From: Raillietiella orientalis
Taxonomy: Eukaryota
Direction of reading: 5' to 3'
NCBI GenBank assembly: GCA_036172245.1
Contig: JAYWIR010000098.1
Span: 1-64,000 of the forward strand
Length of the DNA stretch: 64,000 bases
The position numbers and the translations under genes are program-made. Below the pieces are notes generated by a model that saw only the letters and a list, made by a program, of their open reading frames with translations, was not told where the DNA came from and did no database searches. Shown here piece by piece: positions 5,559-59,952 of the stretch; the first letter of the stretch is position 1, and every line of letters starts with the position of its first letter.

Positions 5559-5559
5559 A

Positions 5560-7100
5560 TACAGACGTGTTTCTCCTGCACTCCTACAGCTTCAGTCAGA
5601 GAAGTCTTCTTAATTTCTTTTCGTGTGATAAAGTGTGTGGCGCATCGTCGGTGTCCCATGGCAGAAATGTCAGCGGACCCCGCAATGGAGATTGGAGTAG
5701 GAGAGGCTAGTTCCTCTCCCCAGCCCAAGCATGGTGAAGTCGATTGCCCTCACGGAGGCGAGGGCATCGGTTCAATTGAAAAAGGGTGCAAGCGTGTCCT
5801 CGGAGCCAATTTCGCCAACGAAGAGGACTTGGAGCCCCGTGGCTGCAGCACCATGCGCTGATGCCATGGCCGAACAAACAGCATATAAGGAACAAGGGTA
5901 CAAGCCGTCCCTCATCTCTAAGGTAGGCAATACTTTGTTGGAAATACCGCTCGCAACTTTGACAGGGAGTTGCAGCGGCTTAATGTGAAAGAAGAAGAGT
6001 TGGAAGGTCTTTCAGTGTAACGCGGTGGTCAGCGGGTGCAGTTGACTTGTGAGGATGCAAGCCTGGCTGAACGCCTGCTGAACACTTCCATTTCGCTGGA
6101 AGCCAGAAAGCTCTTCCCTCTAACTTTGGACCGCTCGGTAGTGACGCACCTCACGGGAGTTACCCTCCGCATGTCGACGAAGCGCGTGCAGGAGGAACTC
6201 AGCAAGTTCGGCACGGTTCACGCGCTTTGGAGCAAGCCCAACGTCTTACAGTCCTATGGAAGGCTGTTTAGTGGCATGGCCGCAGCGCGTGTAACCGTGC
6301 ATGAGAACGGTGGGTTACCTCACAAGTTAGACGTCGTCAAAAAAGAGGTCGATATCTGGTACGTGGGGAAACAAAAGTTCTGCGGACACTGCGATGCAAC
6401 AGGGCACCTGAAAAAACGGTGCCCCCACATCGAGTGTTTCTTGTGCGCAGAAAAGGGCCACCTCCAGAAAATGTGCCTAAAGCGGGAGACTTTGGCACGT
6501 CCCACTACGAAAAAAGCTCAGGGGCACGCGCATACATAACTTTGAAGCCCAAGGAGGCTACAGCAAGGCGTAGCCAGAAGACAGAATTTGAAACCTCTCA
6601 GCAAACGCCGGTGCTCACATCGGGACGGAGGTCTTAGCGTACTGACGATGCAGTTAATGGAAACACAGCTGCGATGGCGAACCCTCGCCATCGCAGCGAA
6701 GATGTGGAGCACCGCTTGGTGCATTCCGGCCCGCCTTCTGGCCAGGTGTGTGTCCCGCTGCGAAGGACTCGCATCGTGTATTTTGTGCCCTGGCCGGAAG
6801 ATTCGCACATGCAGTCTACTGCTCGGGCGCATGGCAACCCTGGCAAATGAGAACCACTGGAGGGTTTGTGGCCCTGCCAACTCCTCCGCTTGGCTGGAAG
6901 AGACTGCTGGCACCTGGGTTAAGCAGAACCAAAGGTGCGGAGACCCGATGAACTGTTTGCGAGTCGGCTTTTACTCTCGCCGAACTCTCCGTGAAATTCT
7001 TGAATTTCCACCGCGTTGCACGTGGGCGGAAGGCACACTTCTTGTTTCGGCAATGCCCTTCTTCCAAAGAGCGGTACACGAAAGCCGGGTGCGGGTGAAC
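5560..7100 (+). mobile_element. Family A element: 5' UTR, ORF1 (ATG 5658, to ~6590) fused by deletion to a post-RT ORF2 segment
   Basis: 5' motif AGACGTGTTTC; knuckles CGHCDATGHLKKRC and CFLCAEKGHLQKMC; RDGGLSV motif from ~6620. Confidence 0.8.
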
Positions 7101-14849: not shown

Positions 14850-16480
14850 ACGAAATCCCCGGGGCAGGCGGTGCACAGGGAACTCGCAGTGCTCGCGAAC
14901 CAAGGCCTTCATGCGGTCCCAGTCTTGGAGATAACGGAGGATGACGCCTCCCAGTACTTGGCGGAGATGTTGCGCCGAACCTGAGATGCGCGTCCAGTTC
15001 CCGGGCAGGTGCCACGCCCTCGATGGTGGTTTTTTGTCGCGAGGCATAACCTCGAGTATCAACCGGAAATGGTCCCATAGCGTCGAAGGAAGTTTCCCTC
15101 GTCTGCCGACACTTGGGCACACGTCGGCGTCAAAAAAGACGTGGTCTACGCTTTGGACCATTTCCGGTAGGTCCCCCAACAAATTGCACGTGCGCATAGC
15201 AGCGCACAGCTCGTTGGCTGCGTCTTTTTGCCCGCAAGGTACACCTGAGAGAAGGTGGATGTTGAAATCCCCATCGATGAGATGCACTTTGCGTACGTTT
15301 GTATCCACCAGCCAGTCGCGCTTCAGGGTTTCGAGAAACTGGGAACGCTCCCCGTACCCGCATCCTCCGCTCAGAGCGTACACATTGGTCACGACAAGGT
15401 CGATCAATTCACCTAAGGATGAGCTGGACAACCGGACTGTCGTTGTCGAAGCGTACGTCCTTGACGAAGGCGGCGACTGCTGGCTTCATAAAAAAGGCGA
15501 CGCCACAGGTGCTGCAAGCACCGCATTGCTAAAACAGACGACCCCCTGCAATCCTCTCGATCTCCTGAGCGTTCTCCACGGTGATCACGTGGATCTCCTG
15601 CAGGAGCGCAAGGTCGAAGTCGCGCAGGGTGTCGGCCGTATCCCGCCTGTTGCCGTCGTCGCGCAGCCCGTTGACGTTCCAGCAGGCTACGCGGATCCTA
15701 CGGCGACAGGCGAGCCCAGGTGTAAATCCTGGGAAAGTGGCAATGGGTCTCCCGCCACCTGGTCGGGCGGGACGCTGTTAGGAGGGGATGCGTCGCGCAT
15801 TGCTTCTCCCTCCTCAATGGGGGCCTTGTCTTCGTCAGGGCCGTGCAGAGGAAGGGGGGTTTCACCCACCTGTACTTCCTCCTCCATGGGGATCGCCAGC
15901 TGCACGGTGTCGAGAAATAAGAGATTCTCACCCTCGCCTCCCACGCTGCTGGCTTTCCCTTCGGGTGCCAGTTGATCCTCCTCCTTCTTGATCCGTATGC
16001 GCCTCCTGGGATTCTAGGACTTGCGTCCCGTCTTCTTTGGTGACGCCTCCGTTGTGTAGGACGCACTTTTGGCATCCGGTTCGGTCTCATCTGCATCCGG
16101 AGACTTCCTTGCAGCCGGCCTTTGTAAGTTTTTTCGGGAGTTCTTCTCACGGCCTTGCAGTTCTGCCTCGAGGTCTTCCGCCGCCTGCAGGGAGGCGGCC
16201 TCCTCGATCGCGTCGAGCGCGGCGCGCGGTTCCCCCTCGGTTCCCCCGGAAGGGAAATTTCTGTCGCAGCTTCGGCGGACGCGAGGGGAAGATTGCAACC
16301 CCGGTGTCGACATCGAGTGCCACCACACGCTCTAATTTTACAGAATAAGCGCGAAAGTTTTCGCGCCACGGTTTTTCGCGCTGCGTTTTTGTTTTCACCG
16401 CGTTTTGCTCGGGACTATCGGGCTTTCTCCTGGCCTGTACCGTCTGCCAGCCATTTAGGCAGTCGGCCTTAACAACACGA
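14850..16480 (-). pseudogene. ORF1 C-terminus plus APE; 5' part of the element continuing at 9229-7101
   Basis: PMEE repeats, CWNVNG, NVYA, GDFN; reading stops at PRGF and resumes as RNERAY at ~9229. Confidence 0.8.
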
Positions 16481-16489
16481 GCACCAGGG

Positions 16490-17323
16490 TGGCCAGCGCT
16501 TCCGCGAAGCACTGAAAGAACTCCGCGGGCAAGCCGTCCTCCCCTGCGCCATACGCCTCTTGAGCCTTTTGATACCGGCGAGAATTTCGCCGGTAGTAAA
16601 AGGCTCGTCGCGGCTTACCGACTCCTCTTCCCCTATTGCCGGGGCACCATCCAGGAGCTAGCGCCGAAAGGCAAATTGGTCCGGAGGCGTCCTGGCGTAG
16701 CGGCATGAATAAAATCTCCGCACGAGATGCCGTACCGACGCCGGGGACGAACATTCCCGGCCCTGGTAGTCCAGCAGTCCGGCCGATTCGGATTGCCAGG
16801 CTTGGCGTTCGGCCCCAGCGGGGTACTGGGCCAGGCGACAAACATTAGGGGTTCTCTAGTAAAGACGGATCTGTAAATAAGCTTGATGGTTGCGAGGACC
16901 CTCGCGAAATCGAGGAAGCAAACGATCCAGGGGGAACTGCTCGCAGAACTCGCGTACTGATTCCCTAATAGTTCCATGTCCTCAAGATTCCAGAGCGTGA
17001 CGCTTCCCAGGTATTCGCGAAGGTGTACCTTTGCACTTGAGAGTCGCGTCCAGTCACAAGGGAGACGCCAGTCCCTGGATGGCGGTCCCTTGTCGTGAGG
17101 CCGCATCTCGAAAATTAGCCCGGAATGGTCCGAAAGCGTCGAGGCAATCTTCCCCCATTTGCCGACCCGTGAATACAGCTCAGCGTCGAGGAAGACGTGG
17201 TCGAGGCTGCGGACTATTCATCTCTCACACGCGAACAAGTTGCGCGCACGCATAGCGGCGTACAACTCGTTCCTCGCGTTCTCTTGTATTTCTGGCTCAC
17301 CTGTTAGAAGGCGAAAAATAAAA
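16490..17323 (-). pseudogene. APE C-half, linker and RT start; continuation of element 23233-25365
   Basis: Begins RLLTGEPE, the sequence that follows GDFN; GEDGLPAEFFQC at ~16510-16545. Confidence 0.75.
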
Positions 17324-20300
17324 TTTATCACCCGGTCACGCCGGAACGTTTATTAATAATAATAAACTGGTCAGGGACAATGTCCTTAACCAACAGAAAG
17401 ACAGAGAACATAGAAAAATTACCGGCACGCAGGCCTGGTAAACAAACCGCTCGCAGCGTGGGAGGAATCAGGGGAAAAAAACAAAAATCAAAAACTGGAG
17501 GGAAGGGTAACGGGTTTTTGGTTAGGCTCCGTACTCACGGGGATTTAAACGATGAGCACCTGAAATGTTCCGAAGCCTATGGGGACGCGGGTGTTAAAAG
17601 AAAATACAAATTTAGTTTATGGAGGGTAGGGCAATGATCACCGGGTTGGCCGCTGCTGAGGATGTGTAAACGGGCGGTGTATTGCGGCGAGATTCCTTTT
17701 TGTCTCCTCTGTCAAATGAGGCCATCCAGCGGATGCTCCTATGTTGAAGGATGCTTTGCTGATTACCTCTTGGTGCTGTCCGTTGATTACCAACGCCTGG
17801 CGGACGCAAACTATCGCGCGTATGCAACTGATGGTTGCAATCCTTTGGCTTAGTGACAGCCCGCTCGGCGTGAAGAATCGTCGCAGCAAGTCTCTTGCGG
17901 TGTCCACGGGATGCATTAGTGCTGTTGCCAGCCTACGCCACAGTCCTTGTAGGACACCGCAGTCCAGAAGTAGGTGCGGAATCGACTCCGTCGATCCGCA
18001 TTAAACGCAGTTCGCAGGCGCAAGTCCCCCGGAGTCACAATGCCAACGCTCGTTGCACTGAAAACCCCAGTGAACGAGAAGCAGCACGGCTTGTTTCCAA
18101 GCAAGGGGGAGCAGGGAACTGTCAATACACTGTGGAGGGACTACAAGTTCTTCGGGGGTGACAGCAAGTTCTTCTGCCCACCGGAGGACTCCCTTTGCAG
18201 TAACAGGAGGAGTGGCGCCATCCGCCAACTCACTTGTCTTCCAGGTGCCAAGGAGTTTGGTTTTTCCCGCTATCGTGCAGAAGACCTCCCACCTCGCCGG
18301 TTGGAAACTGTCGTTTCTTGCCCTGAGGGCAGACAGCGCTGCGGCAAGAGGCGTGGCAGCCAGGGTAGAAAACTTCACCTCGTCCTGCAGTACTTCTTCC
18401 AAGGATCGTGGAAAAAGTCTGCGCAAGGGGCGAAGATCTTCAGGGCGTATTCCTTGGAACGCCGCCCAGGATTCAACAGACTCCTGCCGCCAAACTTCAA
18501 AGTTCATTGGGCGGCAGGAGATCCACGAGTGTGCTTCCAGAAGTGCGGTCAACTGCCGCAATGGAAACCCGAAACCCCGCTTCCTGTATTGAGTGCCCGG
18601 CAAAAGCGAGAGAAATCCTCCGCTGCCGGCGCATCTTCGCAGGAGAATGCGGGCTGGCACACACAGGGGGGGATGTCCATAGCTGGGCACACAGTGCCAG
18701 CAGTCGGAACTGCACCTGCAGTCCGATTCGCTCCATTGTCAGGATACCCAAACCAGCATCCCGACGCGGAGCTGACAAATCTTTAAGGCGGATCCTGGAT
18801 CTCGCCGGACCCTTGAGAGCGTTCCTAAGCAGGCGCTTAGCCCGCTGTTTCGCCGCAAAGGGGGGGTCCGAAGCAAAACACAGGGGACGGAGGAGGGGGG
18901 CCACAAAGGTGTTCCAAATAGTCGCCCGTTCCTGCAAGGTAAACTTGCCGTTAAAGAACGGGCTGATGGCCAACTCTACTTTCTGAAGACAGTCCGCCCA
19001 CGCTTCGGCTGCGCCGAAAGCGCCCAACGGAACGCCAAGGTACTTAAAGTACCCGTCCGTGGGGATCCCCAGGCGGATCCAGTCGGACTGCTTCTCCCAC
19101 GACGTACCTAAAGGAACGACCACGCTCTTCTCTCTGTTCAGGCTCACGCCCGCTCCTTGACAAATCAGGTCGAAGTAATCCTCGACACTGGACGCCGGGG
19201 TGGACATGGGGAGCAGAGGAAGCAGGTCATCAGCGTAGGCGGCCACGGCAGGCGTTCCCGGGCAGGAGCTTGGCAAGTGCGACAGCGTCTGCCTGTATGC
19301 TCTTAGCATGAACTCAAAGAAGATGCTGAAGAGCAACGGGCTTGAGCTGTCGCCCTGTCGGATGCACCTACGAACGGGAATACCATACACGCGGCAGCCG
19401 CTGAAAGTAATGCAGGTTAGCGCGTGGCGTCAGCACGCGCGCAAATACAGCAGGAGTTGCGCTGGTAACCCAAGGCGTTCCATAAGCTCCAAAAGCAGCT
19501 TCTGGTTTACGCAGTCGAACACCTTGCGGAGATCGACCGCGACCGCCAAGGCACCTGGCGTTCCCTCCTGCCGTCGGCGCCTGTTCTTCTTGCCTGCGGC
19601 AGTGACTTTCACAGCAGCCTGGCTTTGCTGCGCCACAACCTCCTGCAGCTGCATCCATGTACGCGCGAAAAGGATGTTCGCCTCCATGGATCGTCCCGGA
19701 ACCGCGTAGGTTTGTTCCGGGCTCAGCACAGATTCCGCGATACTTCCTTACCGCGCGAACCACAGCTTGGAATACAAGTTGACGTCCGAGTTCAGCAAGG
19801 TGATCGGACGCCAGTTGTTAAGTTGACGCAAGTCTCCGCCTTTCGGCAGGAGACGCACCTTCGCTGAGCGGAAGGAATCCGGGACATTCCCGGATTCACC
19901 CATCACTGTAGCTAGTCTCAGCATCAAGAGAATGAGCTCCACTTCAAAGCACTGATAAAACTCTGCAGGGAGCCCATCCTCGAATGGCGCCTTCCGTCTC
20001 TTCAGCACAGCAATGGCCGACGAAAATTCATCCGCCGTTAAGGGCTCGTTGAGACCATCGCGTTCCTTCTCGCCGACAACACGATCATCCTGACACAGTT
20101 GTATCTCAGAGAGAATATTCTCCGTTGGAGATTCCGCGTACAGCGAGGAGTAGTAGCGTCTCACAATGCGGCGTACTTCAGCTGAAGCCGAACATTCCTT
20201 GCCCTTGTCGTCCAGCAGGCATGCTGCTCCGGCCTGCCAGACCTGGCGCTCGGCCCTCGCCTTGTACTCCGCGAGACGCCCGACATCCGCGCGTCTCGAA

Positions 20301-23232
20301 AACGTGCGGGCCTGCAGAAAGTCTCTACCGTTGGCCACGCCCTCTCCAAAACCGGTGGAAGCCGGTGGAAGGGGAATTGGCAGCCGTGCTCGCGGACAGA
20401 TCTTTTGAGATCGTCCCAGTCAGCAAGTTCTTGAATAGCAAAGCCTCGGAGCTATCCACATAGATGCTCCGCAGCCTCCGGTTTGCTAAGTCAATCTGCC
20501 TGCATCCTCCAGTTTTGCAACAAAGGCCCCCTGCTTCACGTAACGATCTCAAACTCCAACCTGTGGTGGTCAGAGTGCCTAGTCAACAATCTTCCTGTCC
20601 TACCCACACGCGAATGCAGGTTTTCATCGAGGAAAACGTGATCTAGCCTTCTTTCCATTTCAGGTTTGCTGACCATCAAGTTGGCGGCGTGCACGAACGC
20701 GCACATCTCCATGAGCTGCGCGTGCTCCCTCGGGCGGCTCCAATCGTCGGAAAGCAGGCGGACGTTGAAGTCCCCAGCAACGAGGTGCGCCACTTGGAAG
20801 CCGGAGTTGTTGGAGCAGTGACTCTGCACCTCACCAAAGAAAGCTACTATTTCTTCGAGGTAGCGAGAGCCACTCGGCGCGTAGACGTTCGTAACGACGA
20901 GATCGATGGACTCGGACCACTTGATGACAAGCTGGCCTATCCGTCCGTCCTCATCGAAACGAAGATTACGCACCGCTTCCGCCATTTTTCCTCTTACGAG
21001 GAACGCGACGCCGCACGTGTGTGCGCCGCCGCACCGCCAATGTAGCGTTCCGCCTGCGCGCCCCTCGATTTCGGCTGCCTGCTCGTCGGAGATTACGTGA
21101 ATCTCCTGCAGCAGCGCGAGGTCGAAGGGGCGCAGGTCGTTGGCTACTAATCGCCTCTTCTCGTCGTTCTGTACTCCGTTCACGTTCCAACACGTTACGG
21201 ACAGACGACGAGAAGACAAGATTCCATGCATTACTGCTGAGAAGGTTGCGGCTTTTTGCTCGCTTTATCCGGCGAGCAGACGGCGAGCAGCACGACTGGC
21301 TGGAGGGGACGGTCGCCACCGTCCTCTGTCGTGCTGCATGCATGTAATGCCTCCACGCCAGGCTTAACCCCGTCGGGTTTCGTGGAGACTTCGCGTGGCT
21401 CCGCGGCTAGGGTTGCCTGGCTGCCTACTTTTGATCAGCGCGCACACGCTTTCGAACGAGTTATCCTCGTCTCGGTGATCGGAACGGCATCCATTTCGGA
21501 GTCCGACCGGCGCATGTTCGATCGGGTTTCGGCCTTCTGCGAAGTAGTGACAGGTTCTGCTGGATTGACAGCTGTCCTGTTATCTTTTTTCGTCTCCAGA
21601 ATATAGCTTTTGGTGACGGCTGCTTTCCCGGCGCGCGCGTTTTCAGCGTGCTCATGCGCAGTTGTACGAGGGACCTTTGCTAAAGGCTTCTTTACTTCAT
21701 TACGGTTCCTTGCTTCGCGTGGTGCCGTAAATGGAGATTGTGCTCCATTGCCATCTTTGTAGCCATCCGCGTCTTTAAACGGAAGCACTTTCGATGGCTC
21801 CGACACGCTCGTCATGGACGCTGCCTTCGGAAGAACCTTAATACCCTTCGTTGGCATGGCATCCGCGCAAGTCGAGAGCTTGCTCTCCGACTGCGACGGC
21901 GTGAGATTTTTCTCCGCTTTCGCGGTGTTGGATCGCGACGCGGATTTTTTTTTGCCGACTTTCGAAGTCGACACGGCACAACCCTTCTTACCCGATTTGG
22001 GCTTCTCAGCCACTGCAGGAGGTAAATGAATGGATCTGACGGTACTGGAAGTGTCGTTACCGCCGTTGTCCATTGGCGTCCCCGCCGGTTGCCCGAACTC
22101 CAAGAGAGCCGGGCGTGCTTGGGAAAGACAGCTATTGAGCCTAGGGGGACTTATTCTTGCCCCGGATTCCCCGCACGCTTTCTTTTGCGGCTCATCTGCC
22201 TCGAGAGGGGGTGCGCAGGGTTTCGCGTGCGAGGTTCCCTGTTGGTTTCGGGCGACATTCCGCCTGGCGTTTTTACCGAATTTCTGCCGTGGGGTCTCCA
22301 GGTTTTTCGCAGATTTTTTCTTTTTATCCGCGCTTTGTTTTCTACGATGGAGCTCTACGGCTGCCTTTTTTCGCAAAAGATCCGGGCAGTTTTTCAATTG
22401 GTGCCCGGATAGTTTGCAATAACGGCATTTTTCAGAGGGGCATTTATCCAAACAATTCCCCTCCTTCCCGCATTGCTCGCACGTTCTTACTTTGCCCACG
22501 AACCACAGGTGGACGACCGTGTCTTTCACCTGATGTTTGGTGGGCAGCAGACGGCGGTCCGGCATTGAGAGCCGGACTCCAGCGACTGCGCTGTGTATGG
22601 ACGGGAAGTCCTTGAGGTTGCTACGCACCCTCCACAGCGCATGGACCGTGGCGAATTTCGCCAACGCGTTCCGAATATCAGTATCGGAGATTTCCGTCTC
22701 GATGTCGAAAATCTCCGCCACAAATGAGTCGTCCATGGCGGCCGGGAAGACCTTCTGGCCACGGATCGACAACGGGGTGCGCAACAAGCGTTGCACAAGT
22801 GCAGCGTCTTTGCAACGCACCTTCAAATAGCAAATGTCTTTTACGGGCATAATGGCGAGAAGGTCCTCCTCCCGCACGCCAACACGGGTCAGTTCATCGT
22901 TGAACTGATTCTTGTCGTGCGCAAAAAGACAACCACTCACCTTATATCGGAGAGCATGTCTATAGCGTTCTGCTACGTATGCCCGCAACTCCGACTCGTC
23001 GAGTGGTTTCCTTTTGACGGCTGCTGTGGCAGCAACGTCAGCAAAACTCCTCTTCATTGGCGAGAAAGACGAAGTGGAGGCGGCCGTCGGTTCTGCGATT
23101 GCAGATCCGGATGCTGTTCCTTCAACTTCAGTAGCTTAAAGTTGGGTCGACATCGTCGTCAAAAAGTAGGACGCCAAGATGAAACGGATGAAAGCACGGA
23201 GACGAGAGCGAAGAAAAACACGTCCGCACTCG
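17324..23232 (-). mobile_element. Full-length family A element (ORF2 ~21231-17638, disrupted) inserted in sense orientation at the GDFN codons of another element
   Basis: 5' GAGTGCGGACGTGTTTTT, CWNVNG, GDFN, SDH, YADD (~19230), AATAAA plus hairpin at 17324-17354. Confidence 0.9.
21435..23057 (-). CDS. ORF1 gag-like nucleic-acid-binding protein (540 aa open; true ORF probably extends on both sides)
   Basis: SFADV N-terminal motif, probable RRM-like region, CEQCGKEGNCLDKC and CRYCKLSGHQLKNC, basic disordered tail. Confidence 0.75.
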   Translation of the reverse strand: MKRSFADVAATAAVKRKPLDESELRAYVAERYRHALRYKVSGCLFAHDKNQFNDELTRVGVREEDLLAIMPVKDICYLKVRCKDAALVQRLLRTPLSIRGQKVFPAAMDDSFVAEIFDIETEISDTDIRNALAKFATVHALWRVRSNLKDFPSIHSAVAGVRLSMPDRRLLPTKHQVKDTVVHLWFVGKVRTCEQCGKEGNCLDKCPSEKCRYCKLSGHQLKNCPDLLRKKAAVELHRRKQSADKKKKSAKNLETPRQKFGKNARRNVARNQQGTSHAKPCAPPLEADEPQKKACGESGARISPPRLNSCLSQARPALLEFGQPAGTPMDNGGNDTSSTVRSIHLPPAVAEKPKSGKKGCAVSTSKVGKKKSASRSNTAKAEKNLTPSQSESKLSTCADAMPTKGIKVLPKAASMTSVSEPSKVLPFKDADGYKDGNGAQSPFTAPREARNRNEVKKPLAKVPRTTAHEHAENARAGKAAVTKSYILETKKDNRTAVNPAEPVTTSQKAETRSNMRRSDSEMDAVPITETRITRSKACAR

Positions 23233-25365
23233 ATTGAAATCTCCCGCTATCAGGTGAGCCTTTCGCACATCGGTATCCGCCAGCCAGTCGCGTTTCAGGG
23301 TTTCCAGCAGCCTGGTGCGGTCGCGGTACCCCTGTTTGCCGCTGGGGCCATACACGTTTGTGACGATTAGGTCGATCGAGTCGCACCAGCTGAGAGTCAG
23401 CTGACCGATCCGACCGTCGTCATCAAACCGCACGCCCTTTACGGCAGCGTCGATGGCCGGCTTCACGAAGAACGCGCCCCGCAGGTGTTTCGAAGGCCGC
23501 ATCGATAATACAACCGACCCCCCGCGATCGTCTCGATCTCCTGGGCGTCTGCCGCGGTGATCACGTGGATCTCCTGCAGCAGCGCCAGGTCGAGCTCACA
23601 CAGGGTGTCGGCCGTATCTCGCCTGTTGCCGTCGTCGCGCAGCCCGTTGACGTTCCAAGAGGCCGCGCAAATCCGACAGCGACTGGCGAGGCCAGGTGTT
23701 AGTCCTGGGAAAACAAGGATGCGGCGTCCGCCACCTGCTTGGGCAGGACGCTAGGTGGAGGGGGAGGGCGCACAGGTACTGAAGGCATCTGTTCCTCCTC
23801 CTCCATCGGTGCCGGCGCGTCGGGCCGATCACCCTCAGGTGGAGTCGCGCCTACCTGTTCGCCCTCCTCCATGGGTTCGGGCTGCTCAGGTTTCCCGAGT
23901 GGATGGAGGACTTCACCCCCCTGCTCACCCTCTTCCATGGGGGTGGCCGACTCGACGGCTTCCGGGCGTGGGTGTTCCCCTCCGGGATTCCCACGCTGCC
24001 GCTTCCTTCCGGCTTCTCCTCCTCGATGGTGGAGGGGAGGCGCCTCCTGGGTTTCTGGGACTTGCGTCCCGACTTCCTGGCGGGTGCCTCCTAGAAGAAG
24101 GATCCGCTTCCGGCCCCCAGGTCGCACTCATTTGCGGGGGCCTTCTTCGTCGGAGCCGACCTGCGTACTCCCTTGCGCGACGGGGTTTCGTGCTCGGCGA
24201 GCGTTGCTGCGAGGTCCTCCGGCGCTTTCTCGAAGGCCGCGTCTTCGCCAGCGGCGACCGTTGCCGCAGGCTGCTCCGCGACCTTATCGAGCGCGGCGTC
24301 ATCGCTGACGGCGAACGTTGCCGGGGGCTCCTCCGCGACTTTATCGAGCGCGGCGTCCTGGCTGTCGGCGCGCGAGTCTCGCGTCTCACCCTCTAAACGT
24401 AAAATGGGCTGGTCCACGCGAGCATTCATCGCGTCCGTATCAGCTGTTTGCTGAACATTGCCGCGGGCGGCCTCGGCAGGAACGGCTAAGCGTTCCAGTG
24501 CCACCGGGCATTCGCGGAGTTGTTTTTTTTTTGAAAGTGGCGCGGCTTTTTTCTTTTTGACGGCAGTTTTCTTCTCCGACTTTTCTTCTAACAACACTTC
24601 CTTTTTTTTTTCTTTTCTGGCCTGAATTAGCTGCCAACCCTTCTTTATTTCCGCGTTCACGGGAGCGCTTTCCCAAGACGCCTGTACGGGAGGAAGGGAG
24701 GCTGGCAGTCGGGAACGGCCATTTTCGCGAGCTGGTCTTACTACCAGCTTTTCACGTTTTCCCTGCGCCTTTTTGGCGGCAGGAGGAACCGGGGTGAGGC
24801 GCTTGTGGCACACGCGCCGAACGTAACCCTTTTCGCCGCATAGGTGGCACACAAGGTGCAGGCACCTTTTTCGTAGATGCCCTACTGCATTGCAGTAGCA
24901 ACAAAATTGGCGTTTCCCCACGTACCAGAGGTCCACCGCTTCTTGGCAGACCTCCAGCTCGTAGGGAAGCGCACCACCCTCTTTTACTGTGATACGCGCC
25001 GCAGCTTGACCTCCGAAAAGGCTATTGTAGCCTTGGAAAATCGTGGACTGCGGCCACAACGCGAGCACTTCTCCGTTCTTTTGTAGCTGTTCTCGAACCG
25101 CTGACCTCGTCATGCGACTGCAGATCCCAGTGAGATGGACCACCACCGAGCGGTCCATCGTTATCGGCAAGATCTTCCCACCATCAACGATCAGCGGGTC
25201 GGTGATCATGCGTCGGGCCAAGGTGATATCTTTGCATACCACCTCTACCCACTGGCAACGCTGCCATCGGACACCGACGATGTGCACGCCAAACCACTTA
25301 GCAAGAAACCACTCGCCTTGCCACGCAAACGGAGCGCAGGAAAAGCACGTCCTCTCTCTACAGAG
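23233..25365 (-). mobile_element. Family A element, 5' part: 5' UTR, ORF1 with ~320 bp deletion at ~25250, APE up to GDFN
   Basis: Close direct copy of 40059-42250; two knuckles; SWNVNG. Confidence 0.85.
24220..24362 (-). repeat. 57-bp coding tandem repeat (~2.5-3 copies, DAALDKVAE...), also at ~40790-40938
   Basis: TTATCGAGCGCGGCGTC at 24284 and 24341. Confidence 0.85.
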
Positions 25366-25545
25366 GGGATTTGGAGAAGGTGTCAGGAACGAGCGAACCT
25401 ACCTTCAGGCCCGCCGGTATTCCAGACGTCCTGACGTTCGTCGCCTGGCGGAATTCAAAGCTGAGGCGGAGAGGCAGGCCTGGCAGTCAGGCTTGGCCTG
25501 CTTCCTGGACCATCAGGGCCAAGAACGCTCCAGCCCAGCTCAGGT

Positions 25546-27764
25546 TTTTCACCCGGGTAAGCCGGTGCTTTTATTACTAAAATTTTGATATTACAAAATT
25601 TTGTGATGCGAACAAGTGCCTGCAAATGTTTTTGAAGTCGGCGTCAACGGCACGCTTTCTCCAAGGAGATCGCTGCCCAGTGGATGGCATTCCGGCTGGT
25701 CCTTCCTCTCCTAGACGTGGTCCACTTCTCCAAGATACCGCGCATGCAGCAGAGTACTGCTACGCTTCCGGAGGCTGGCAAGCCGTTTCGTGGAAGGCAA
25801 CACACTCCAGAATCAAGTGGGAAAAGGTCTCCCTTCTCCCGCACTCTGCACAACTAGCATCCACATTCCTAAATGTCCAGCGAGACAGGCGTGCTCTGCT
25901 TAAAAGTCCCCAGTGGAGCAGAAGCAACGCCGTCTCCTGCCACTGCAGGGGAAGGGTGCCGTTGTCCCAAGACGCTGGGGGCCACTTCACCTCCTCCGGA
26001 GGTATACCGAGCAGCGCGCCCCAGCGTAAAAGTCCGTTCGGCGGGACACTCGGGGTACTAGCGTCCGCTAGTTTCCTCGGCGTTCACGCCTTTAATGATT
26101 TTTTCCTGCCTCCGATGAGGCAGGACACTTCTCACGATGCCTGTTGGTGGCTGTCCGGAACTTTCCTGAGGAAGGGCAGCACTGGGGCAAGGGGGGTGAA
26201 GGAAGCCCACAGAAGTTTCCGTGGGTTGGTAACGATCTCCTGGAGTGGCTGACAAGCGTGCCTCCCTCTGCGGAGGCAGGAGAAGTCCTCATCGCTGGTG
26301 CCGTTGATCTTCGCCCATGCGGAAACGGACTCCTGAAGCCAGGTAGTCCAGTCCGCTGGGATGCAGGAGATCCAAGGGTTGTCTCTCATCAGAGCAACCA
26401 AATCCTGCAGCTGATAACCACAATGGTTCAGGCTGCCTTCGTTGGCTACCAGGATTGAAATCAATCCGGAGCAGCCGGTTGCCCTGTGAGCAAGGAGTCT
26501 TGATGGTGCACACCAGGGTGCTGTCCAAAACTTTGCCACAAGGGCAAGTTTTCTGAATTGGAGCTGTCGCTCCATGCGCTCCAGCGTCAGGATACCAAGT
26601 CCACCGTCCCTGCGTGGAGCGCACAAGTCTTTGAGTCCGACGCGGGGCCTCCGGTTGCCCCAGAGGGCTTTTCGTATAAGGCCCCTAGTCCGTGTCCTGA
26701 TTTGATATGGGGTAGGGCACACAAAAAGTAGGGGGCGAAGGAGGGAAGCCGCGAAAGCGTTCCATACCGTGGCCCGTTCCTGCAAGTGGAACTTGCCTTC
26801 CCGGAACGGGCCGATCGCCAGCTCCACCTTTTGTAGACGGTCGGACCAGGCTTCTGCAGAGCAGAAGTCCCACAACGGAACGCCAAGGTACTTGATGTAC
26901 CTGCCCGTGGGGATCCCCAAGCGGATCCAGTCCGACCGTCCGTCCCTCGTCGAGTCGGTGAAAAGCAACGACGATTTCGTCCTGTTTACCTGGAGGCCTG
27001 TCCCACGGTATAGCAACTCGAAGAAATCCTCAAGCGCCGATGCCGGGGTGGACCCGGGAAGCAGAAGCAGAAGATCATCGGCATAGGCCGACACGGCAGG
27101 CGTGCCGGGACACGAGCTCGGCAGGGTTGCCAAAGTCTCCCTGTATGCTCTCAGCACCAACTCAAAGTAGATGCTGAAGAGCAGGGGGCTGAGGCTGTCA
27201 CCCTGCCGGATGCCACGACGAACCGGCATGCCGAACACGTGCCGGCCGCTGAAATTAATATTGATGTACGCGAAGCGGTAGCAGGAGCGCAGGTAGGCCA
27301 GGAAGACGGCCGGAAATCCCAAGCGTTCCAGGAGCTCCAGAAGGAGCTCCTGGTCGACGCAGTCGAAAGCTTTACGCAAATCGACTGCGACCGCAAGGGC
27401 TTCAGGCTCCGCATCTTCTTCCCGGCTTCCCTCCTCCCTGTCAATGGAGAGTCCAGGACTTTCCCGACGTAGCTGCGCCTCGCGTTGTTGCAACTGCCAG
27501 AATGTGCTGGCGAGGAACAGGTTGGCCTCCATGGTTCGTCCGGGAACAGCGTATGTCTGTTCCGGACTGACCACGGAGTCCGCTACCCGTCCCACGCGCT
27601 CAGCTCACAGTTTGGCGAGCAACTTTGCGTCCGCATTCACTACAGTGATGGGTCGCCAGTTGCCAACGTTGCGCAAGTCTCCTCCCTTAGGAAGGAGACG
27701 TACTCTAGCTGACCGGAACGAGTTGGGGACATCCCCACGTTCACGGATAAGCATACATAGTTTT
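25546..27764 (-). mobile_element. 5'-truncated family A element with a perfect 14-bp TSD
   Basis: AGCCCAGCTCAGGT at 25532-25545 and 27765-27778; 3' hairpin at 25546-25575. Confidence 0.92.
26132..27595 (-). CDS. Reverse transcriptase core, 487-aa open frame
   Basis: QTYAVPGR, DLRKAFD, GIRQGDSLSPLLF, YADD, KYLG, DGGLG. Confidence 0.85.
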   Translation of the reverse strand: MGRVADSVVSPEQTYAVPGRTMEANLFLASTFWQLQQREAQLRRESPGLSIDREEGSREEDAEPEALAVAVDLRKAFDCVDQELLLELLERLGFPAVFLAYLRSCYRFAYININFSGRHVFGMPVRRGIRQGDSLSPLLFSIYFELVLRAYRETLATLPSSCPGTPAVSAYADDLLLLLPGSTPASALEDFFELLYRGTGLQVNRTKSSLLFTDSTRDGRSDWIRLGIPTGRYIKYLGVPLWDFCSAEAWSDRLQKVELAIGPFREGKFHLQERATVWNAFAASLLRPLLFVCPTPYQIRTRTRGLIRKALWGNRRPRVGLKDLCAPRRDGGLGILTLERMERQLQFRKLALVAKFWTAPWCAPSRLLAHRATGCSGLISILVANEGSLNHCGYQLQDLVALMRDNPWISCIPADWTTWLQESVSAWAKINGTSDEDFSCLRRGRHACQPLQEIVTNPRKLLWASFTPLAPVLPFLRKVPDSHQQAS

Positions 27765-30526
27765 AGCCCAGCTCAGGTAAGCCGCATCATGCAGGAGTTT
27801 TCTTCCCCCCTGTACGCGTCATTAACACCCGAGTGCCAATTCCCGCAGCGGTTGCTGCCGGATGGGGCTCCCGCGATCGGGGAGGAAGTTTGTTCCAGGT
27901 TGTCGGAACCATTTACGGTGACAGAGATTGTCTCCGCCATAAGTAAATTAAAGACAAGAAAGGCACCAGGGGAGGACGGCCTGCCCGCGGAGTTTTACAA
28001 ACACTTCGCGAAAGAGCTTGCACCCCTGGTGCTCAGGCTAAGTACGCTGATCCACGAACACGGCGAAGTTCCCGCCTCGTTCCGATCAGCAAAAGTACGT
28101 CTCCTGCCGAAGTGAGGAGACCTACGCAACATTAGCAACTGGCGTCATATCGCAGTGGTGAATGCGGACGCAAAGTTGTATGTCAAATTGTGGCCTGAGC
28201 GTTTAGGACCGGTGGCGGATTCCGTGATCAGCCCGGAGCAAACATACGCTGTTCCCGGGCAAACCATGGAATCCAACCTACTCCTCGCCAGCACATGGTA
28301 ACAGTTGCAACAGCGCGTTGCAGAGGACGGTCAAGGGAGCCTTGAGCACCCCTCTGACCAGAGAGACCCGGTTCAGGGTGAGGCGGAATCAGCGGGAGCC
28401 TTCGCCGTCGCTGTCGAATTGCGCAAAGCATTCGACTGCGTCGACCAGCATCTCCTTCTGGAGCTCCTGGAACGAACGGGATTCTTGTCCGTGCTTCAGT
28501 CGTACCGGCGCTCCTGCTGGCGCAACGCGTACATAAATATTGGTTTCAGCGGCCGGCACGTGTACGGCGTGCCAGTGCGCCGCGGCATCCGGCAGCCTGA
28601 ACCCCTTGCTCTGCAGCATCTACTTTGAGTTGGTGCTGAGTGCATACAGGGTAACTCTGGCAACCCTGCCTAACTCGTGTCCCGGCACGCCTGCCGTTTC
28701 GGCCTATGCAGACGATTTTCTGCTGCTGCTTCCCGGGTCCACCCCGGCGAGTGCGCTCGAGGATTTCTTCGAGCTGCTGCGTCGCGGGACGGGCCTGGAG
28801 GTGAACGGGGCGAAGTCGTCTATGGTCTTTGTCGGTACGGCGTGGGCTGGTCGGTCGGACTGGATCCGCTTGGGGAACCCCACGGGCAGGTGCTTCAAGT
28901 ACCTCGGCGTTCCGTTGGGGGACTTCTCCGCAGCAGAAGGCTGGTCCGACCGTCTCCGAAAGGCAGCGTTGGCGATCGGTCTGTTCCAAGAAAGCAAGTT
29001 TTACTTGCAGGAACTGGCCGCAGTGTGGAACGTTTTTGCGGCCCCCCTTCTACGCCCTTTACTTTTTGTGTGTCCCGTTCCTTATTTTGTCAGGAAAAGA
29101 GCAGCGGACCTCCTACGGCCAGTCCTTTTGGGCAAAGGGAGGTCCCGTTTGCGTCTTAAAGACTTGTGCGCTCCACGTAAGGACGGTGGACTTGGCCTTC
29201 TTAAGATGGAGCGTATGGAAGTACAATTTCAGTTCAGGGTTCTCGCCCTTGCATCGGAATTGTAGGACACGCCTTGGTGCAGTTCAGCACGACTTCTATC
29301 CCAGCGAGCCTCAGGATATGGCGGACTTTCTTCGTTTCTCTGGGCGCGCGACCACAGACAAGCACACTCCGGCTTTCATCTGCGGCGCATGGCCGCTGTG
29401 GTTCGGAAGAACACCTGGATCTCCTGCGTCCCAGGGAACTACTCGGCATGGTTGCACGAGTCAGTCTTCACTTGGGAAAAGTTTTACGTTCCGGCGGTCA
29501 CAAAAAACACTTGCCCGAAAAAGCACGCCCGCTGGACGCTACAGGAGATCGTGCAGTCCCACGATTAGCTTCTGTGGGCCCTGATAACCCCACTTGCTCC
29601 TGTGCTGCCCTTCCTACAAAACGCTAGAGACAACAGGGAGCAGTGGAAATGGACCGTGTCCTGCACCATCGGAAGTAGGACACAAAAGATTAAGGCGTCG
29701 ACATCTCGGCAGCTAGCGGACGCTGCGACGCCGAGTGTCTTGCCCAACGGATTCCGACGCTGGGGAGAGCTACTCGGACTATCTGCGGAGGAGATGAAGT
29801 GGCCCCCAGCATCTTGGGATAGTGACTTCCTTCCCCTGAAATGGCAGGAGGTGGCGCTGCTCGTGATACATTGGAATTTACCCTTCAAGGCACGCCTCTC
29901 TCACTCCACTCGGGGGGCTGTGGATTCCCAGTGGGACCGGTGCGGGGAGAAAGAGACATTCCCCCACCTCCTTATTGAGTGCATTGCTCTCCCCCCTCTC
30001 TGGGATCGTCTTGAAGCAATCCTGGACATTCGCGGAGGCGGCCCTAAAGACGTTTTTAGGCGACTCTTCTTGCGTGATGCCTTGTCCCCTCTTGCTTCTG
30101 TGGCAGTTCTTTGCTGCATTAGAGGGATCGTGTCGGCTTGGAACGCGACAACAAGAAGGCACCAAGCTTGCGGCAATGTTGTACATTAAACTCGCCTTTT
30201 GTGAGAAACATTTGCAGGTGGAGACACCTGGGTGCACAACGGACGCAGCTTGTGAAGATCCTGAACAGGATCTAGAGGACCTTTAAGCGTGCAATGTGAT
30301 TCCCTTCGCGCCCCTCCCTCCTTAAACATAAGTACCCTCTTCAACTTTAACATTTTTTTATTTGTTTCGTTTTTTTCTTCCCATTTCCGCGCGTTGGAAG
30401 GACCTCGCCGGTTTAGAACTGGCAAGAAGCAGGCTGCTTTGTGCTGAACCATCAGGTTCTTCACCCGGAGATTACATGTATTTTTATTTTTTTTAAAATA
30501 AATGCCCCGGCATATTTGGGTAAAAA

Positions 30527-33500
30527 CGCAGTGACGTCACCACCAGCTGGCGACAATGCCGCTCCGGCATTGCCAGCCAACGACGTCTGCGCGCCGATCG
30601 ATGAAGCCGCTTCCATTGCGCCTGCGCCGAGTGTCGGTGCGAAAAGCGAGGAGGTGGCGCGAATCGAAGACGCGACCTTCGAGCAGGCCGCGGAAGAGCT
30701 GGCAGCCATGTGACGGCAGCCTGCAAAAGTTGAAAAGAAGTCCTTGAGACGACCGGCAAGGGCGAAGGTCCCGGGAAATTCCGAGTCCGAAACCGAAGCC
30801 GGTTGCTCTTCTTCCGCAGCTGTGCCGAAGAGAAAGGCTGGCAAGTTGACCGGTTGCCCAAGACGGGTCGCCCCTTCGCATATGGAGAAGCCCATTTCCT
30901 CGGGCACGGAGGAGGAGGCAATGTGCGTCGCGCCACGCGAATCTTCTCCCGTCCGCGTCTCGGAAGCCAGCCCGATGGAAATCGCTGTCGACGACAAGCT
31001 CCCGTGTGAGCAGCCGACCGTCGTCACGGCCGACAACGAGCCGCATCCCGCAAGGGAGGACGCCGCCTCCACCCCACCATAAATACACCAACGCGTGGGC
31101 TTGCCTCCTGCCGCCGCTTGCGCATCACCTGTTGGAACGTCAACGGGTTGCGCGGCGACGGTAAGAGGCGAGATGTAGCCGACATACTGCGAGACTTCGA
31201 CCTGGTGCTCCTGCAAGAGACGCACGTTCTCAAAGCAGAAGAAGTTTAGGAAATCGAAAGAATCGCGGTAGGGCGGATACTGTAGAGGAACGGAAACGAC
31301 CGCTCCTGCGGAGTGGTCTTTATGCTTAAGCCAGCCGTCGAAAATACACTGCGCAGCGTGCGGTTCGACAAGGAAGGTCGAGTTTGGCAACTTGTTTTCA
31401 AGTGGTCCGAATCGATCGACCTCATAGTCACGAACCTGTACGCTCCAATGTGCAACCACAGGGCCGAGGAACGCACTGCGTTCTTCGAATCCCTGCGGCG
31501 AGACTGGTTGGCTGAAACAAGCGTACGACGGCCGCACCTCATCGCGGGCGACTTCAATCTCCGCCTGTTGGCAGGTGCGCCGTGCATTCGAGCACGACTG
31601 GTCAACGAGTTGTGTGCAGCCATCAATGCGCGCAACTTGTTGGCGGGTGATGCCGGGAGAGATCGGAACATCGATCACATGTTCCTCGACAACCACTTGT
31701 GCACGCGGGTGGGAACTCGAGGAACGCTCCCGGCACAGCTGTCCGAACATCCACGGCTCGTGCTCGAGATACATCCACGCGACAAGAACCCTCTTCTGAA
31801 AACGTGGCGCCTGCCGGGAGACTGGTTGCGCCTTGCAGGAGCGGCGAAACATCTGCGCTCCTTCCTGCGTGGATTCCATCTTGAGACGCTCGCGGACTGG
31901 GACGAAGTGAAGTGGTCAGCCCGCGAGTTTTGCGACCAGTTTCCCCTGGTACGTCTTCCGCCGGGCTTCGGCGAGGGAGTCAGGAACGAGCGGGAATACT
32001 TCATTCCCGCCGTTATTCCAGGCGTCCCGACGTCCGTCGCCTGACAGAACTCAAGACTGAGGCGAAGAGGCAGGCCTGGCAGTCAGGCTCGGCCTGCTTG
32101 CTGGACCATCAGGGCAAAGAACGCTCCAGCCCAGCTCAGGGAAACCGCATCGTGTGGGAGTTCTATTCCTCCTTGTACGCGCCACTAGCACCGGAGCGCC
32201 ATTTCGCGCAGCGCCTGCTACCGGATGGCGCTCCCGCGCTCAAGGAGGAGGACCGTTTCACGTTGGAAGAACCGTTCACGATGGTGGAGGACGTCTCCGC
32301 CATCAGCAGGCTGAAGTATAGGAAGGCACCTGGGGAGGACAACCTGCCCGCGGAGTTTTACAAACACTCCGCTCCAGAGCTGGCCCCCCTGGTGCTCAGG
32401 TTAAGTACGCTGATCCGCGAACACGACGAAGTTCCCGCCTCGTTTCGGTCAGCAAAAGTAAGTCTCCTGCCGAAATCAGAAGACTTAGGCAACATTGGCA
32501 ACTGGCGTCTCATCACAGTAGTGAATGCGGACGCAAAGTTGTATGCCAAGTTGTGGGTTGAGCACTTGGTGCAAGTTGTTGCTTCCGTGATCAGTCCGGA
32601 GCAGACCTATGCTGTTCCCGGACGAACCATGGAGGCCAACCTGCTCCTCGCCAGCTCATGGTGGAAGTTGCTACAACGCGTTGCTCAGGATGGTCAAGGG
32701 AGCCTCGCGCTCCCCTCTGACCAAGAAGATCATGCAGAAGAAAGGACGGACTCGGCGGGAGCCTTTGCCGTCGCGGTCGATTTGCAGAAAGCATTCGACT
32801 GCGTCGACCAGGATCTCCTTCTGGAGCTCCTAGAACGCTTAGGTTTCCCGTCCGTGCTCCGGTCTTACCTGCTCTCCTGCTAGGCAACGCGTATATCAAT
32901 ATTGGTTCCAGCGGCCGGCACTTGTACGGCGTGCCAGTGCTTCGCGGCAAACGGCAGGGTGACAGCCTGAGCTTCTTGCTCTTCAGCATCTATTTCGAGT
33001 TGGTGCTGAGGGCATACGGGGTATCTCTGGCAACTCTGCCGAGCTCGTGTGCCGTTACGCCTGCCGTGTCGGCCTATACAGACGATCCTCTGCTGCTGCT
33101 TCCCAGTTCCACCCCGGCGAGTGCGCTCCAGGAGTTCTTCGATTTGCTGCGCCGAGGGACGGGCCTGGAGGTGAACAAGGCGAAGTCGTCCATGGTCTTT
33201 GTCGGTTCGGCGTGGGCTGGACGGTCGGACTGGATATGCTTGGGGATCCTCACGGGCAGGTGCTTCAAGTACCTTGGCGTTCCGTTGAGGGACTTCTGCG
33301 CAGCAGACTCCTGCTCCGACCGTCTTCAAAAGGCAGCGTTGGCGATCGGTCCGTTCCAAGAAAGCAAGTTCTACTTGCAGGAATGGGCTGCGTTGTGGAA
33401 CGCGTTTGCGGCCCCCCTTTTTCGCCCCCTACTTTTTGTTTGCCCCGCCCCTTATTTCATTCGAAAACAAGCAGAGGGCCTTCTGAGGACAGTCCTTTTT

Positions 33501-34898
33501 GGCAAAAAGAGGTCCCGTGTGAGGCTCAAATTTTTCACGGTCCACGTAAAGACGGTGGACTTGGCGTACTTACGCTGGAGCGCATGGAACTACAACTCCA
33601 ATTCAGGACTCTCGCACTCGCCGCCGAATTGTGGGACACGCTTTGGTGCGTTCCAACACGCCTCCTGGCACAACAAGCCTGTGGATCCGGCACACTTTTG
33701 TCGTTTCTGTCTGCGCGCGTCTGCAGAAAAGCACATTGTGACTCTATGCTGCGACGCATCTTCGTTGTGATTCGGGAGAACGGCTGGATCTCCTGCCTCC
33801 CAGGGAACTACTCTGCCTGGTTGCACGAGTCAGTCTCCACCTGGGAAAAGATCCACGTTCAGGCGGTCACGAGGAACACTTGCCGGAAAAGGCACGCCCG
33901 CTGGACGCTGCAGTAGTTCGTGCAGTCCCACGACAAACTTCTGTGGGCGTTAATAACCTCCCTCGCCACAGTGCTGCCCTTCCTTGTGAATGCCAGGAAC
34001 AGTAGCGAGCAGGGGAAATGGACCGTGTCCTGCAATATAATCGTCAGGACACAATCGATAATGACGTGGACATCTCGGCAGCTAGCTGACGCTGCGACGC
34101 CGATTGTCCCGCCTAACGGAATTCGACGCTGGGGCGAGCTACTCGGACTATCTCCGTAGATAAAGTGGCCCCAAGCGTCCTGGAACAGTGCATTCCTCTT
34201 CCTGAAATGGCAGTATGTGGCGTTGCTTGTGGTACTCTGAGGATTACCATTCAAAACACGCCTGCAACACACCACCCGCGGGGCTGTGGATCCTAATTGT
34301 GACCGGTGTGGGGAAAAAGAAACATTCTCCCATCTTCTTTTTGAGTGCAGCGCCCTCCGCCCTTTGTGAGATCGTCTCGCGGCGATCCTGGACTTGCGCG
34401 TATGCGGCCTAGAGGACGTTTTCAGGCGCCTCTTCTGTAGTGATGCCTTTTCCCCCCCCGCTTCCGTAGCAATCCTCTGCTGCATTCGAGGGATCGTGGC
34501 GGCTTGGAACGCCCCAAGAAGAATGCTTCAGCCAACCGGCAACGCCTTACACTGGACTCGCCTTTTCGCGCGCAGTGTCTGCAAGTGGCGCCACTCAGGT
34601 GCTGAAAGGACTCAGCTTGTTCGGATGCTGAACAGGATCTAGGGGATCTGTCCACGCGCACCGTGATCCATTCCCCTACCTCCCATCTCTACAACATTTG
34701 TTCACCCCCCACATTTGAGCTTTTTGTTTTTTTTGTTTTTCTTTATTTTTCATCCCCGCGCATCGGAAGGACCTCTTTGGCATGGAGCCGGTAACCAGCA
34801 GGTTGTTTTGGAGTGGTGAACCTTCGGGTTCGCCACGCGACAATTTTTCTGTTATTTTATTTCTATGAAATAAATGCCCCGGCACATCCGGGTGTGAA
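30527..34898 (+). mobile_element. Family A element: ORF1 C-terminus (to 31082), disrupted ORF2 (~31080-34666), 3' UTR
   Basis: CWNVNG, NLYAP, GDFN, YTDD, CDRC...H...C, AATAAA 34869. Confidence 0.88.
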
Positions 34899-54050: not shown

Positions 54051-54054
54051 CGGT

Positions 54055-59935: not shown

Positions 59936-59952
59936 GGCGAGCGGGCGGTAAG

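Follow-up and report, generated by a model that had tools for sequence, protein, structure and literature searches.

Some LINEs are site-specific and insert into rRNA or snRNA genes, into microsatellites or into telomeres; others nest in their own copies and occur in the centromeres of algae. The Zepp and ZeppL elements, which are L1 LINEs of green algae, insert into copies of themselves and form nests and tandem arrays that consist mostly of 5'-truncated 3' parts (PMC8226300, PMC3446292). LINEs of the R1 and Tx1 clades, such as R1 and Keno, possess an APE-type endonuclease and are target-specific, that is, they use one sequence of a multicopy target; in target-specific APE LINEs the 3' boundaries are precise and the 5' boundaries are more variable (PMC4640811). 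In Drosophila, tail-to-internal tandems of LINEs arise from repeated insertion at one site (PMC5932611). The preference of the human L1 endonuclease is 5'-TTTTT/AA-3' (PMC8565326), and nested LTR retrotransposons of plants target specific regions of other elements (PMC6911290).

We analyzed a stretch of 64,000 nucleotides from Raillietiella orientalis (contig JAYWIR010000098.1, positions 1 to 64,000), which we call the window. Almost the whole window is made up of copies of one LINE family, which lie on both strands and are nested in one another. The copies are L1-like, with an ORF1, an APE endonuclease and a reverse transcriptase (RT). Three elements of one ORF1 clade (clade Ia), named A, B and C here, are each inserted in antisense into another LINE copy, all three within a stretch of some 20 nt at the G-F-G-E-G codons. 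These codons (the GFG site) lie in the linker of ORF2, about 50 codons past the APE domain. We call the target copies T_A, T_B and T_C, respectively.

The window resembles Zepp and ZeppL in the nesting of LINE in LINE and in tail-to-internal tandems (T_A with its remainder R, Q, and P). This likeness is one of insertion behaviour. The database proteins nearest to those of the window are L1-like and 21-34% identical. In contrast to what we see in the window, the accounts of insertion in PMC8226300 and PMC3446292 mention neither a nucleotide-level site nor an antisense rule nor a site specific to a clade. The elements are similar to the R1 and Tx1 clades in having an APE-type endonuclease and in apparently using one sequence of a multicopy target, which is again a likeness of behaviour. 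Here, however, the target is the coding sequence of a sibling LINE, entered in antisense, in place of the rRNA and snRNA genes, microsatellites and telomeres named above, and the specificity is read from three events only. With human L1 the elements share the APE and RT domains, target site duplications (TSDs) of about 13 nt, frequent 5' truncation, and a T-run primer end that would pair with the A tail. In contrast to human L1, the tails have only 3-5 A after AATAAAYG and a CCGG-N5-CCGG motif, and the supply of T runs fails to explain the reuse of the site. The plant LTR retrotransposons are alike in their regional preference within resident elements, as far as PMC6911290 describes it, but they belong to another class and use an integrase instead of target-primed reverse transcription (TPRT). 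In the full texts that we searched and the passages that we consulted, no LINE clade is described that targets certain codons of a sibling ORF2 in antisense, although one may have been described elsewhere.

Materials and methods

Element C (9230-14852, plus strand) is the sole complete element of the window. It was used as the ruler, and the other copies were mapped by tblastn. The reference positions given below are window coordinates of element C. The region of the GFG site was aligned in 13 rows. The census of LINE-into-LINE insertions comprised 14 events within the window, each read from at least one junction. Chance clustering was estimated from 200,000 random draws, in which either 14 events were placed on a 5.6-kb element or 11 events were placed on a 1-kb hot zone. 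A public sequencing run, X1, which contained 0.10 of the sampled words, was also used, and its contigs were placed on positions 9000-28999 at 80% likeness.

Results

The domains of the copies were examined with Pfam. PF00078 (RVT_1) matched three ORFs (E = 1.7e-17, 2e-07 and 9.5e-31), and PF03372, the apurinic-type endonuclease, matched the ORF of element C at 11006-11521 (E = 6.1e-07; 29.8 bits, cut-off 24.5). In these LINEs, the APE domain lies upstream of the RT. For the ORF1 region, zf-CCHC_2 matched one ORF1 at a score below the cut-off (E = 0.0024; 18.1 bits, cut-off 27), and the ORF1s of elements A, B and C had no Pfam match. The translations of ORF1 upstream contain Cys/His-rich stretches and are also Lys-rich. 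A protein database search with the RT ORF gave 36 matches, which were L1-like, 21-34% identical, and contained PF03372 and PF00078, often together with PF13966. The same kind of search with the ORF1 frame of element B gave no match. An atlas search returned broad eukaryotic RT clusters only. Metagenomes were scanned with the A/B junction pattern, giving 0 matches, and with the RT protein, giving 120 pattern matches of which 0 were confirmed.

The ends of the elements are conserved. The 5' end reads GGACGTG(T/C)TTT; besides A and B, element C carries it at 9233, X at 23225 on the minus strand, and K at 54061. The 3' ends consist of AATAAAYG, the CCGG-N5-CCGG motif, TG, and then 3-5 A. RNAalifold, applied to nine element 3' ends, one of which was badly placed in the alignment, gave a trivial structure of 3 pairs only. 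On inspection by eye, the 3' ends of the elements showed no complementarity to the target at the GFG codons other than that of the A/T run. TSDs, 5' truncation and A-rich 3' ends are all present in the window: the element W begins within the RT, ends in an A5 tail and is flanked by a 13-nt TSD, and the element P is 5'-truncated within ORF1. Segmental duplication also occurs here, as 3059-5556 repeats parts of 45560-49700 in inverted orientation (88-90% alike).

Element C is a full-length clade-Ia LINE with ORF1, APE and RT, which lies on the plus strand in antisense orientation at the GFG codons of T_C. The left half of T_C (14853-16187, minus strand), which is the APE region up to ...CCCCGGGGATTT, adjoins the 3' end of C. 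The right half (7143-9229, minus strand), which starts CGTAACGAAAGG and comprises the linker and the RT, adjoins the 5' end of C. In the sense of the target, therefore, the order is ...CTGCCCCGGGGATTT, then C, then CGTAACGAAAGG.... Element C has both target flanks, and these come from one clade-I element and are contiguous except for a loss of 12 nt. That is, the 12 nt located between TTT and CGT in the uninterrupted copies are absent from T_C at the insertion. The 5' end of C reads GAA followed by GGACGTGTTTT, and its 3' end reads AATAAACG...GGCAACACG; the AAA that comes next, up to 14855, is ambiguous. An earlier sequence-only reading of the window had described a diverged element of the same ORF1 type at 9230-14849 that splits its target with a few bases lost and no TSD. 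This description agrees with our mapping, in which the element ends at 14852 and 12 nt are missing.

The 5' part of element A (23233-25365, minus strand) comprises the 5' UTR, an ORF1 with an internal deletion of about 300 nt, and the start of the APE. Its 5' end carries 15 extra nt, CCCTCTGTAGAGAGA, ahead of GGACGTGCTTT. It adjoins T_A (25366-25544, plus strand), a clade-II target fragment that extends from the GFGEG codons to a second insertion point, the Val site, and that is 88% like the uninterrupted copy Q past its first 17 nt. The 5' part of element B (40060-42252, minus strand) also comprises the 5' UTR, ORF1 and the start of the APE; it is 93-95% like A and has the same 15-nt extension. 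In the window the extension, CCCTCTGT[A/G]GAGAGA, was found only at A and B. Element B adjoins its target T_B (42253-45151, plus strand), a clade-Ib copy that extends from the E-F-G-E-G codons to its own 3' end and is 81-82% like T_C.

On the A side, CACGTCC is located at 25346-25352 and the codons GGA TTT GGA GAA GGT at 25367-25381. On the B side, CACGTCC is located at 42233-42239 and the codons GAA TTT GGT GAA GGG at 42254-42268. The distance from start to start is 21 nt in both cases (25346 to 25367 and 42233 to 42254), exactly as the sequence-only reading had it, and the targets differ downstream in the way it gave, VRNERTYLQ on one side and ARNKQAY*H on the other. On the opposite strand CACGTCC reads as the conserved 5' end of the elements, GGACGTG(T/C)TTT, so that these junctions are places where the minus-strand 5' ends of A and B adjoin plus-strand LINE fragments that start at GFGEG.

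The homology of T_A to the uninterrupted copy Q begins exactly at 25366. In the 13-row alignment the targets of A and B are broken at one and the same column, from which the two breaks of C are 8 and 20 nt away. Of the two junction positions proposed earlier, that of A, 25365, proved correct, whereas that of B, 42250, was off by 2-3 nt and is placed at 42252/42253 here. In the first 16 nt, which contain the GFGEG letters, T_A and T_B agree at 13/16, whereas T_A and its sister Q agree at only 12/17; beyond these letters T_A and Q agree at 142/161. The letters could thus belong to the insert lineage, in which case the break would lie up to 16 nt further to the right. The true break of A and B, if shifted in this way, could be close to the right break of C, and it falls at the GFG codons either way. 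A microhomology of CACGTCC with the target sequence GCACCGCC, about 20 nt upstream, was considered and rejected on account of its spacing, 14 nt as against 7-8 nt.

The junctions differ in their details. At C we found a 3-nt filler and the 12-nt target loss, while at A and B we found the 15-nt 5' extension, with the GFGEG codons retained. Elements A and B show 5' junctions only: their 3' halves and the left halves of their targets are absent from the window, where a search for a second clade-Ia 3' end found only that of C itself. Thus, only C shows the 3' junction, which is the one that defines a TPRT site. T_C cuts into element A at reference position 12346, and the nest is broken near 7130. 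Element B is interrupted by the 3' end of P, at reference position 11266.

Several fragments could be joined into single elements. A contig of run X1 joins 17307 to 23232, which means that the segment at 16487-17322 (minus strand) is the continuation of A beyond the nested element X. This continuation crosses A's own GFG site, which is unbroken, and it groups with C in the tree. Element W (25545-27764, minus strand) is a 5'-truncated LINE inserted in antisense at the Val site of T_A. It is bracketed by the 13-nt TSD AGCCCAGCTCAGG (25532-25544 and 27765-27777), while one contig of run X1 passes directly from 25531 to 27765, lacking W, and so represents an empty allele or a paralog. From these two facts it follows that T_A and the fragment R (27765-30525, plus strand), which comprises the RT to the 3' end, are one element. 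At 25365 there was no joint or loose end among those listed for run X1, which is uninformative on the GFG site.

We built separate trees for the insert side and the target side of the junctions, a check that the sequence-only reading had proposed. In the insert tree, based on ORF1, A and B are joined with support of 99/99, C is joined to them with 98/98, and the three stand apart from X, E1, U, K and M. In the target trees, based on the linker and on the RT, T_B is joined with T_C (100/98 and 100/99; 81-82% identity), T_A with R is joined with Q (100/100), and C and the continuation of A are sister to T_B and T_C. The insert tree, ((A,B),C), and the target tree, ((T_B,T_C),T_A), are therefore discordant, so that no single insertion followed by duplication yields both. 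The divergence across the A and B junctions is also lopsided. Elements A and B agree at 110/116 next to the junction and at 1610/1735 in the body, while T_A and T_B beyond the GFGEG codons agree at only 100/163, that is, they are 61% alike. Moreover, A lacks about 300 nt of ORF1 that are present in B and C. Judged from these comparisons, recurrent, independent insertion at the GFG codons is supported.

We then compared the GFG sites of hit and unhit copies. The sequence RATTTGG is present at this site in all three hit targets, which read GGGGATTT, GGGATTTGG and GGAATTTGG, and in only one of nine unhit copies. The unbroken sites are those of Q (31963-31979, plus strand, GGGCTTCGGCGAGGGAG), P, U, E2, V, G, X, the continuation of A, and C itself. 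The exception is C, whose own GGATTTGG site is unhit and which is the sole unbroken copy of the nine with GGATTTGG. Among the others, CTTC or CTGC stands in Q, P, V and G, GGTTTGG in U and E2, GGTTTTGG in X, and GATTTCG in the continuation of A. Copy Q, 88% like T_A further on, differs from T_A at exactly the RATTTGG letters. As substrates on which APE endonucleases could be compared, we name GGATTTGG against GGCTTCGG, as well as GGATTTGGAGAAGG, GGCTTCGGCGAGGG and the Val site.

The core ATTTGG occurs 13 times in the window; 3 of these are at GFG codons, and the other 10 are at no mapped target break. The shorter motif TTT[AG] occurs 14-49 times per strand per element, about equally on both strands. 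Given how common this motif is on both strands, neither the site nor the strand can be put down to a plain T-run rule.

The 14 events of the census are as follows. C, A and B lie at reference positions 11938-11958, antisense, at the GFG codons. W and Z lie at reference position 12120, antisense, at the Val site; Z (51926-54046, minus strand) is the second such insertion, and its target fragment is G (51637-51925). Antisense events were also found for U at 11870 (with a 5-nt duplication, CTCGA), V at 11243, P at 11266, E1 at 11222, M at 11348, K at 12748, and the 3' end of T_B's own element at about 14250. The two events in sense orientation are X into A at 11541 and T_C into A at 12346. Thus, the orientation was antisense in 12 of the 14 events (binomial p = 0.0065), and 11 of the 14 lay between reference positions 11222 and 12346, a hot zone formed by the APE domain and the linker.

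All three clade-Ia elements of the window are at the GFG site, and the other 11 mapped events all lie elsewhere. The Val site, 180 nt from the GFG site, was used twice, by W and Z, whose 3' junctions are at the same column. Clade-II elements are found at the Val site (W, Z) and also in tail-to-internal tandems (T_A with R, Q). The other clades are not cleanly site-bound, and clade II uses more than one kind of site.

Of the random draws of 14 points on 5.6 kb, 1.4% contained a triple within 20 nt, 0.3% contained at least two pairs no more than 2 nt apart, and 0.07% contained the triple as well as the pairs. When 11 points were placed on 1 kb, the corresponding values were 16%, 2.7% and 1.5%. 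The clustering is real at the level of the whole element. Inside the hot zone it is suggestive and not decisive.

Discussion

We think it probable, at roughly 60%, that A, B and C represent three independent insertions at a site preferred by clade Ia, made by target-primed reverse transcription; this reading is drawn from three events in one window. The mechanism can be considered as follows. The APE-type endonuclease would nick the target's sense strand, either at G(G/A)ATTT or immediately behind it. The freed 3' end, which ends in T, would pair with the short A tail of the element and prime the cDNA. Because the primer would then be the T end of the sense strand, the insert would come to lie antisense to the target. 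The second strand would break within about 15 nt of the first nick, and this break would lead to the 12-nt loss in C and to a right flank starting from GG(G/A)ATTT in A and B. The preference may be set by the local sequence RATTTGG-W-GAAGG and, as far as the window shows, would be a trait of clade Ia. The places and the orientation of the inserts, the two flanks of C, the separate origin of the events and the tie between the letters of the site and its being hit are shown by the sequences; we infer the exact nick, from C alone, as well as the part played by the endonuclease and what the 3' junctions of A and B, which lie outside the window, look like.

Another explanation is that there is no clade-specific site, and that a loose, L1-like nick preference shared by all clades acts within a regional hot zone, so that the triple at the GFG codons is a coincidence. 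The concentration of 11 of the 14 events in the hot zone fits this view, as do the 16% of 1-kb draws that contained such a triple, the scattered junctions of other clades (U, V, P, E1 and M) inside the zone, and the use of both the Val site and the tandem site by clade II. However, A and B share one nucleotide column and W and Z share another, for which the 1-kb draws gave 2.7% (at least two pairs) and 1.5% (together with the triple). In addition, RATTTGG occurs in every hit copy but in only one of the nine unhit ones, and all three clade-Ia elements chose one site. We therefore regard a coincidence within the hot zone as rather unlikely. It is also conceivable that the RNA of an incoming LINE pairs with a resident homolog to form an R-loop, and that the displaced sense strand is nicked and primes synthesis, with the endonuclease only fine-tuning the position. 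Such pairing would account for self-targeting and for the antisense orientation seen in 12 of 14 events, a choice of strand that motif supply leaves unexplained since TTT[AG] is equally frequent on both strands; the mapped targets, too, are always other LINE copies. But LINE targets are expected anyway in a window that is almost all LINE sequence, the linker of T_A is only about 60% like clade I and would be poor for RNA:DNA pairing, and pairing alone does not predict nucleotide-precise sites that are linked to a clade. We consider this explanation improbable.

The remaining explanations concern the history of the loci. The sequence-only reading had offered duplication plus gene conversion as its alternative, that is, one ancestral insertion was segmentally duplicated, and gene conversion then homogenized the inserts of A and B or replaced their targets. 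Segmental duplication does occur in the window (3059-5556 and 45560-49700), and the 15-nt extension is shared by A and B and found nowhere else in it. The discordant trees, however, leave no single duplication history that fits all three loci, and conversion would require a tract with its boundary at the junction, where flanks that are 61% alike offer little homology. Furthermore, C lacks the extension and has the 12-nt target loss, and the 300-nt deletion of A is not found in B. The lopsided divergence, the conflict between trees and the different junction of C together argue against this alternative, which we consider very improbable. To an equally small degree we credit the view that A with T_A and B with T_B are 5' inversions produced by twin priming, or that 5'-truncated T elements happen to lie beside the 5' ends of A and B. 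It is true that both pairs lie head-to-head and that the window lacks the left halves of T_A and T_B. Nevertheless, the body of A runs through its intact GFG site to reference position 12346 and so overlaps T_A, which is of another clade; twin priming is thereby excluded for A and T_A. It is unlikely for B and T_B, as T_B is only 68% like the continuation of A whereas B is 93% like A. Truncation would require two cuts at the same nucleotide beside the exact 5' end of the same clade, which amounts to two coincidences, and C is a plain insertion with both flanks.

Three independent insertions at a preferred site thus agree best with our results. As for the earlier proposal that this subfamily has its own site about 180 nt from the Val site, the part concerning recurrent, independent insertion at the GFG codons holds, while the specificity for the subfamily is only partly supported, because it is based on three events, one window and one 3' junction, that of C. 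A broader and more tentative idea, which we ourselves doubt, is that the window may house a guild of sibling L1-like LINE clades, each with its own nucleotide-precise antisense site in the APE-linker region of the others: the GFG codons would serve clade Ia, and the Val site would serve W and Z. The ORF2 of LINEs could then act as a safe multicopy target, and the strand rule might come from pairing of the incoming RNA with a resident copy.

If the subfamily site fails genome-wide, the window would be an ordinary LINE graveyard with a regional hot zone. If it is true, a clade that aims at a few codons of a sibling ORF2 would link the site-specific and the self-nesting LINEs. It would also provide a simple, sequence-level cause for the growth of LINE nests, possibly centromere-like, that spares genes. 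In that case, the APE endonucleases of the clades, related to one another but differing in their short targets, would form a natural series in which the evolution of LINE target choice could be studied.

Insertion sites

The Val site, which lies about 180 nt from the GFG codons, was hit twice, by the antisense LINEs W and Z (25532-25549, 27765-27778 and 51900-51930). Both W and Z meet their plus-strand targets (...CAGG| and ...GACG|) with the 3' end, and do so at one and the same alignment column. W is flanked by a 13-nt TSD, and it is absent from one contig of the public sequencing run X1.

In the whole window, the inserted element was antisense to its target in 12 of the 14 readable LINE-into-LINE events. 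Despite this excess, T-run motifs are about equal in number on either strand of the elements. At the 5' junctions of two other copies, M and K (5540-5575 and 54030-54075), the target picks up again at (ATAG)TTCGAC in both cases, and the two junctions occupy different places of the LINE, that is, reference positions 11348 and 12748 in the coordinates of the complete element C. The shared sequence may reflect a motif-level preference of the ORF1 group to which M and K belong.

Rearrangements and a second family

The segments 3059-5556 and 45560-49700 form an inverted segmental duplication, 88-90% alike, which contains the E2/U copies and a fragment, F, with the 3' end of U; approximately reference positions 12936-14660 are gone from the E2 copy. 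A tail-to-tail breakpoint was also observed at 7118-7143, between a plus-strand fragment (reference 13483-14007) and T_C, the target of C, on the minus strand (from reference 14031). Both partners end in the C-terminal region, the arms are only 78% complementary, and the 3' half of A, another clade-Ia LINE, cannot be traced past this point.

A distant second LINE family is present at 1-943 and 59950-64000. It shows 27-35% protein identity to C and has an open RT frame of 521 aa at 62272-63837; its upstream GC-rich region is without relatives within the window.

Structure of the elements

The order AATAAAYG, CCGG-N5-CCGG, TG and 3-5 A is conserved at the 3' ends at 17330, 25545, 30525, 34893, 40059, 45151, 46098 and 55983, and the 3' end of C is different from this type. 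U carries AACCGG...CCGGTT, whereas the others carry CACCGG...CCGGGTG, a change that could be compensatory; RNAalifold on a rough alignment did not recover a stem.

In A and in B, also of clade Ia, the C-terminal part of ORF1 contains three tandem 57-nt units (24187-24427 and 40765-41005, respectively), which encode AALDKVAE-type repeats. Compared with B (41833-42136) and C, A (25249) has an ORF1 that is shorter by about 300 nt in its N-terminal part.

Three plus-strand elements, namely T_A (the target of A) with its remainder R, Q and P, are arranged tail to internal at 27765-40059. The A5 tail of R leads directly to Q, which starts in the ORF1 tail; the 3' motif of Q leads directly to P, which starts within ORF1; and the 3' end of P adjoins B at reference position 11266. 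This arrangement looks like the repeated use of one nick site.
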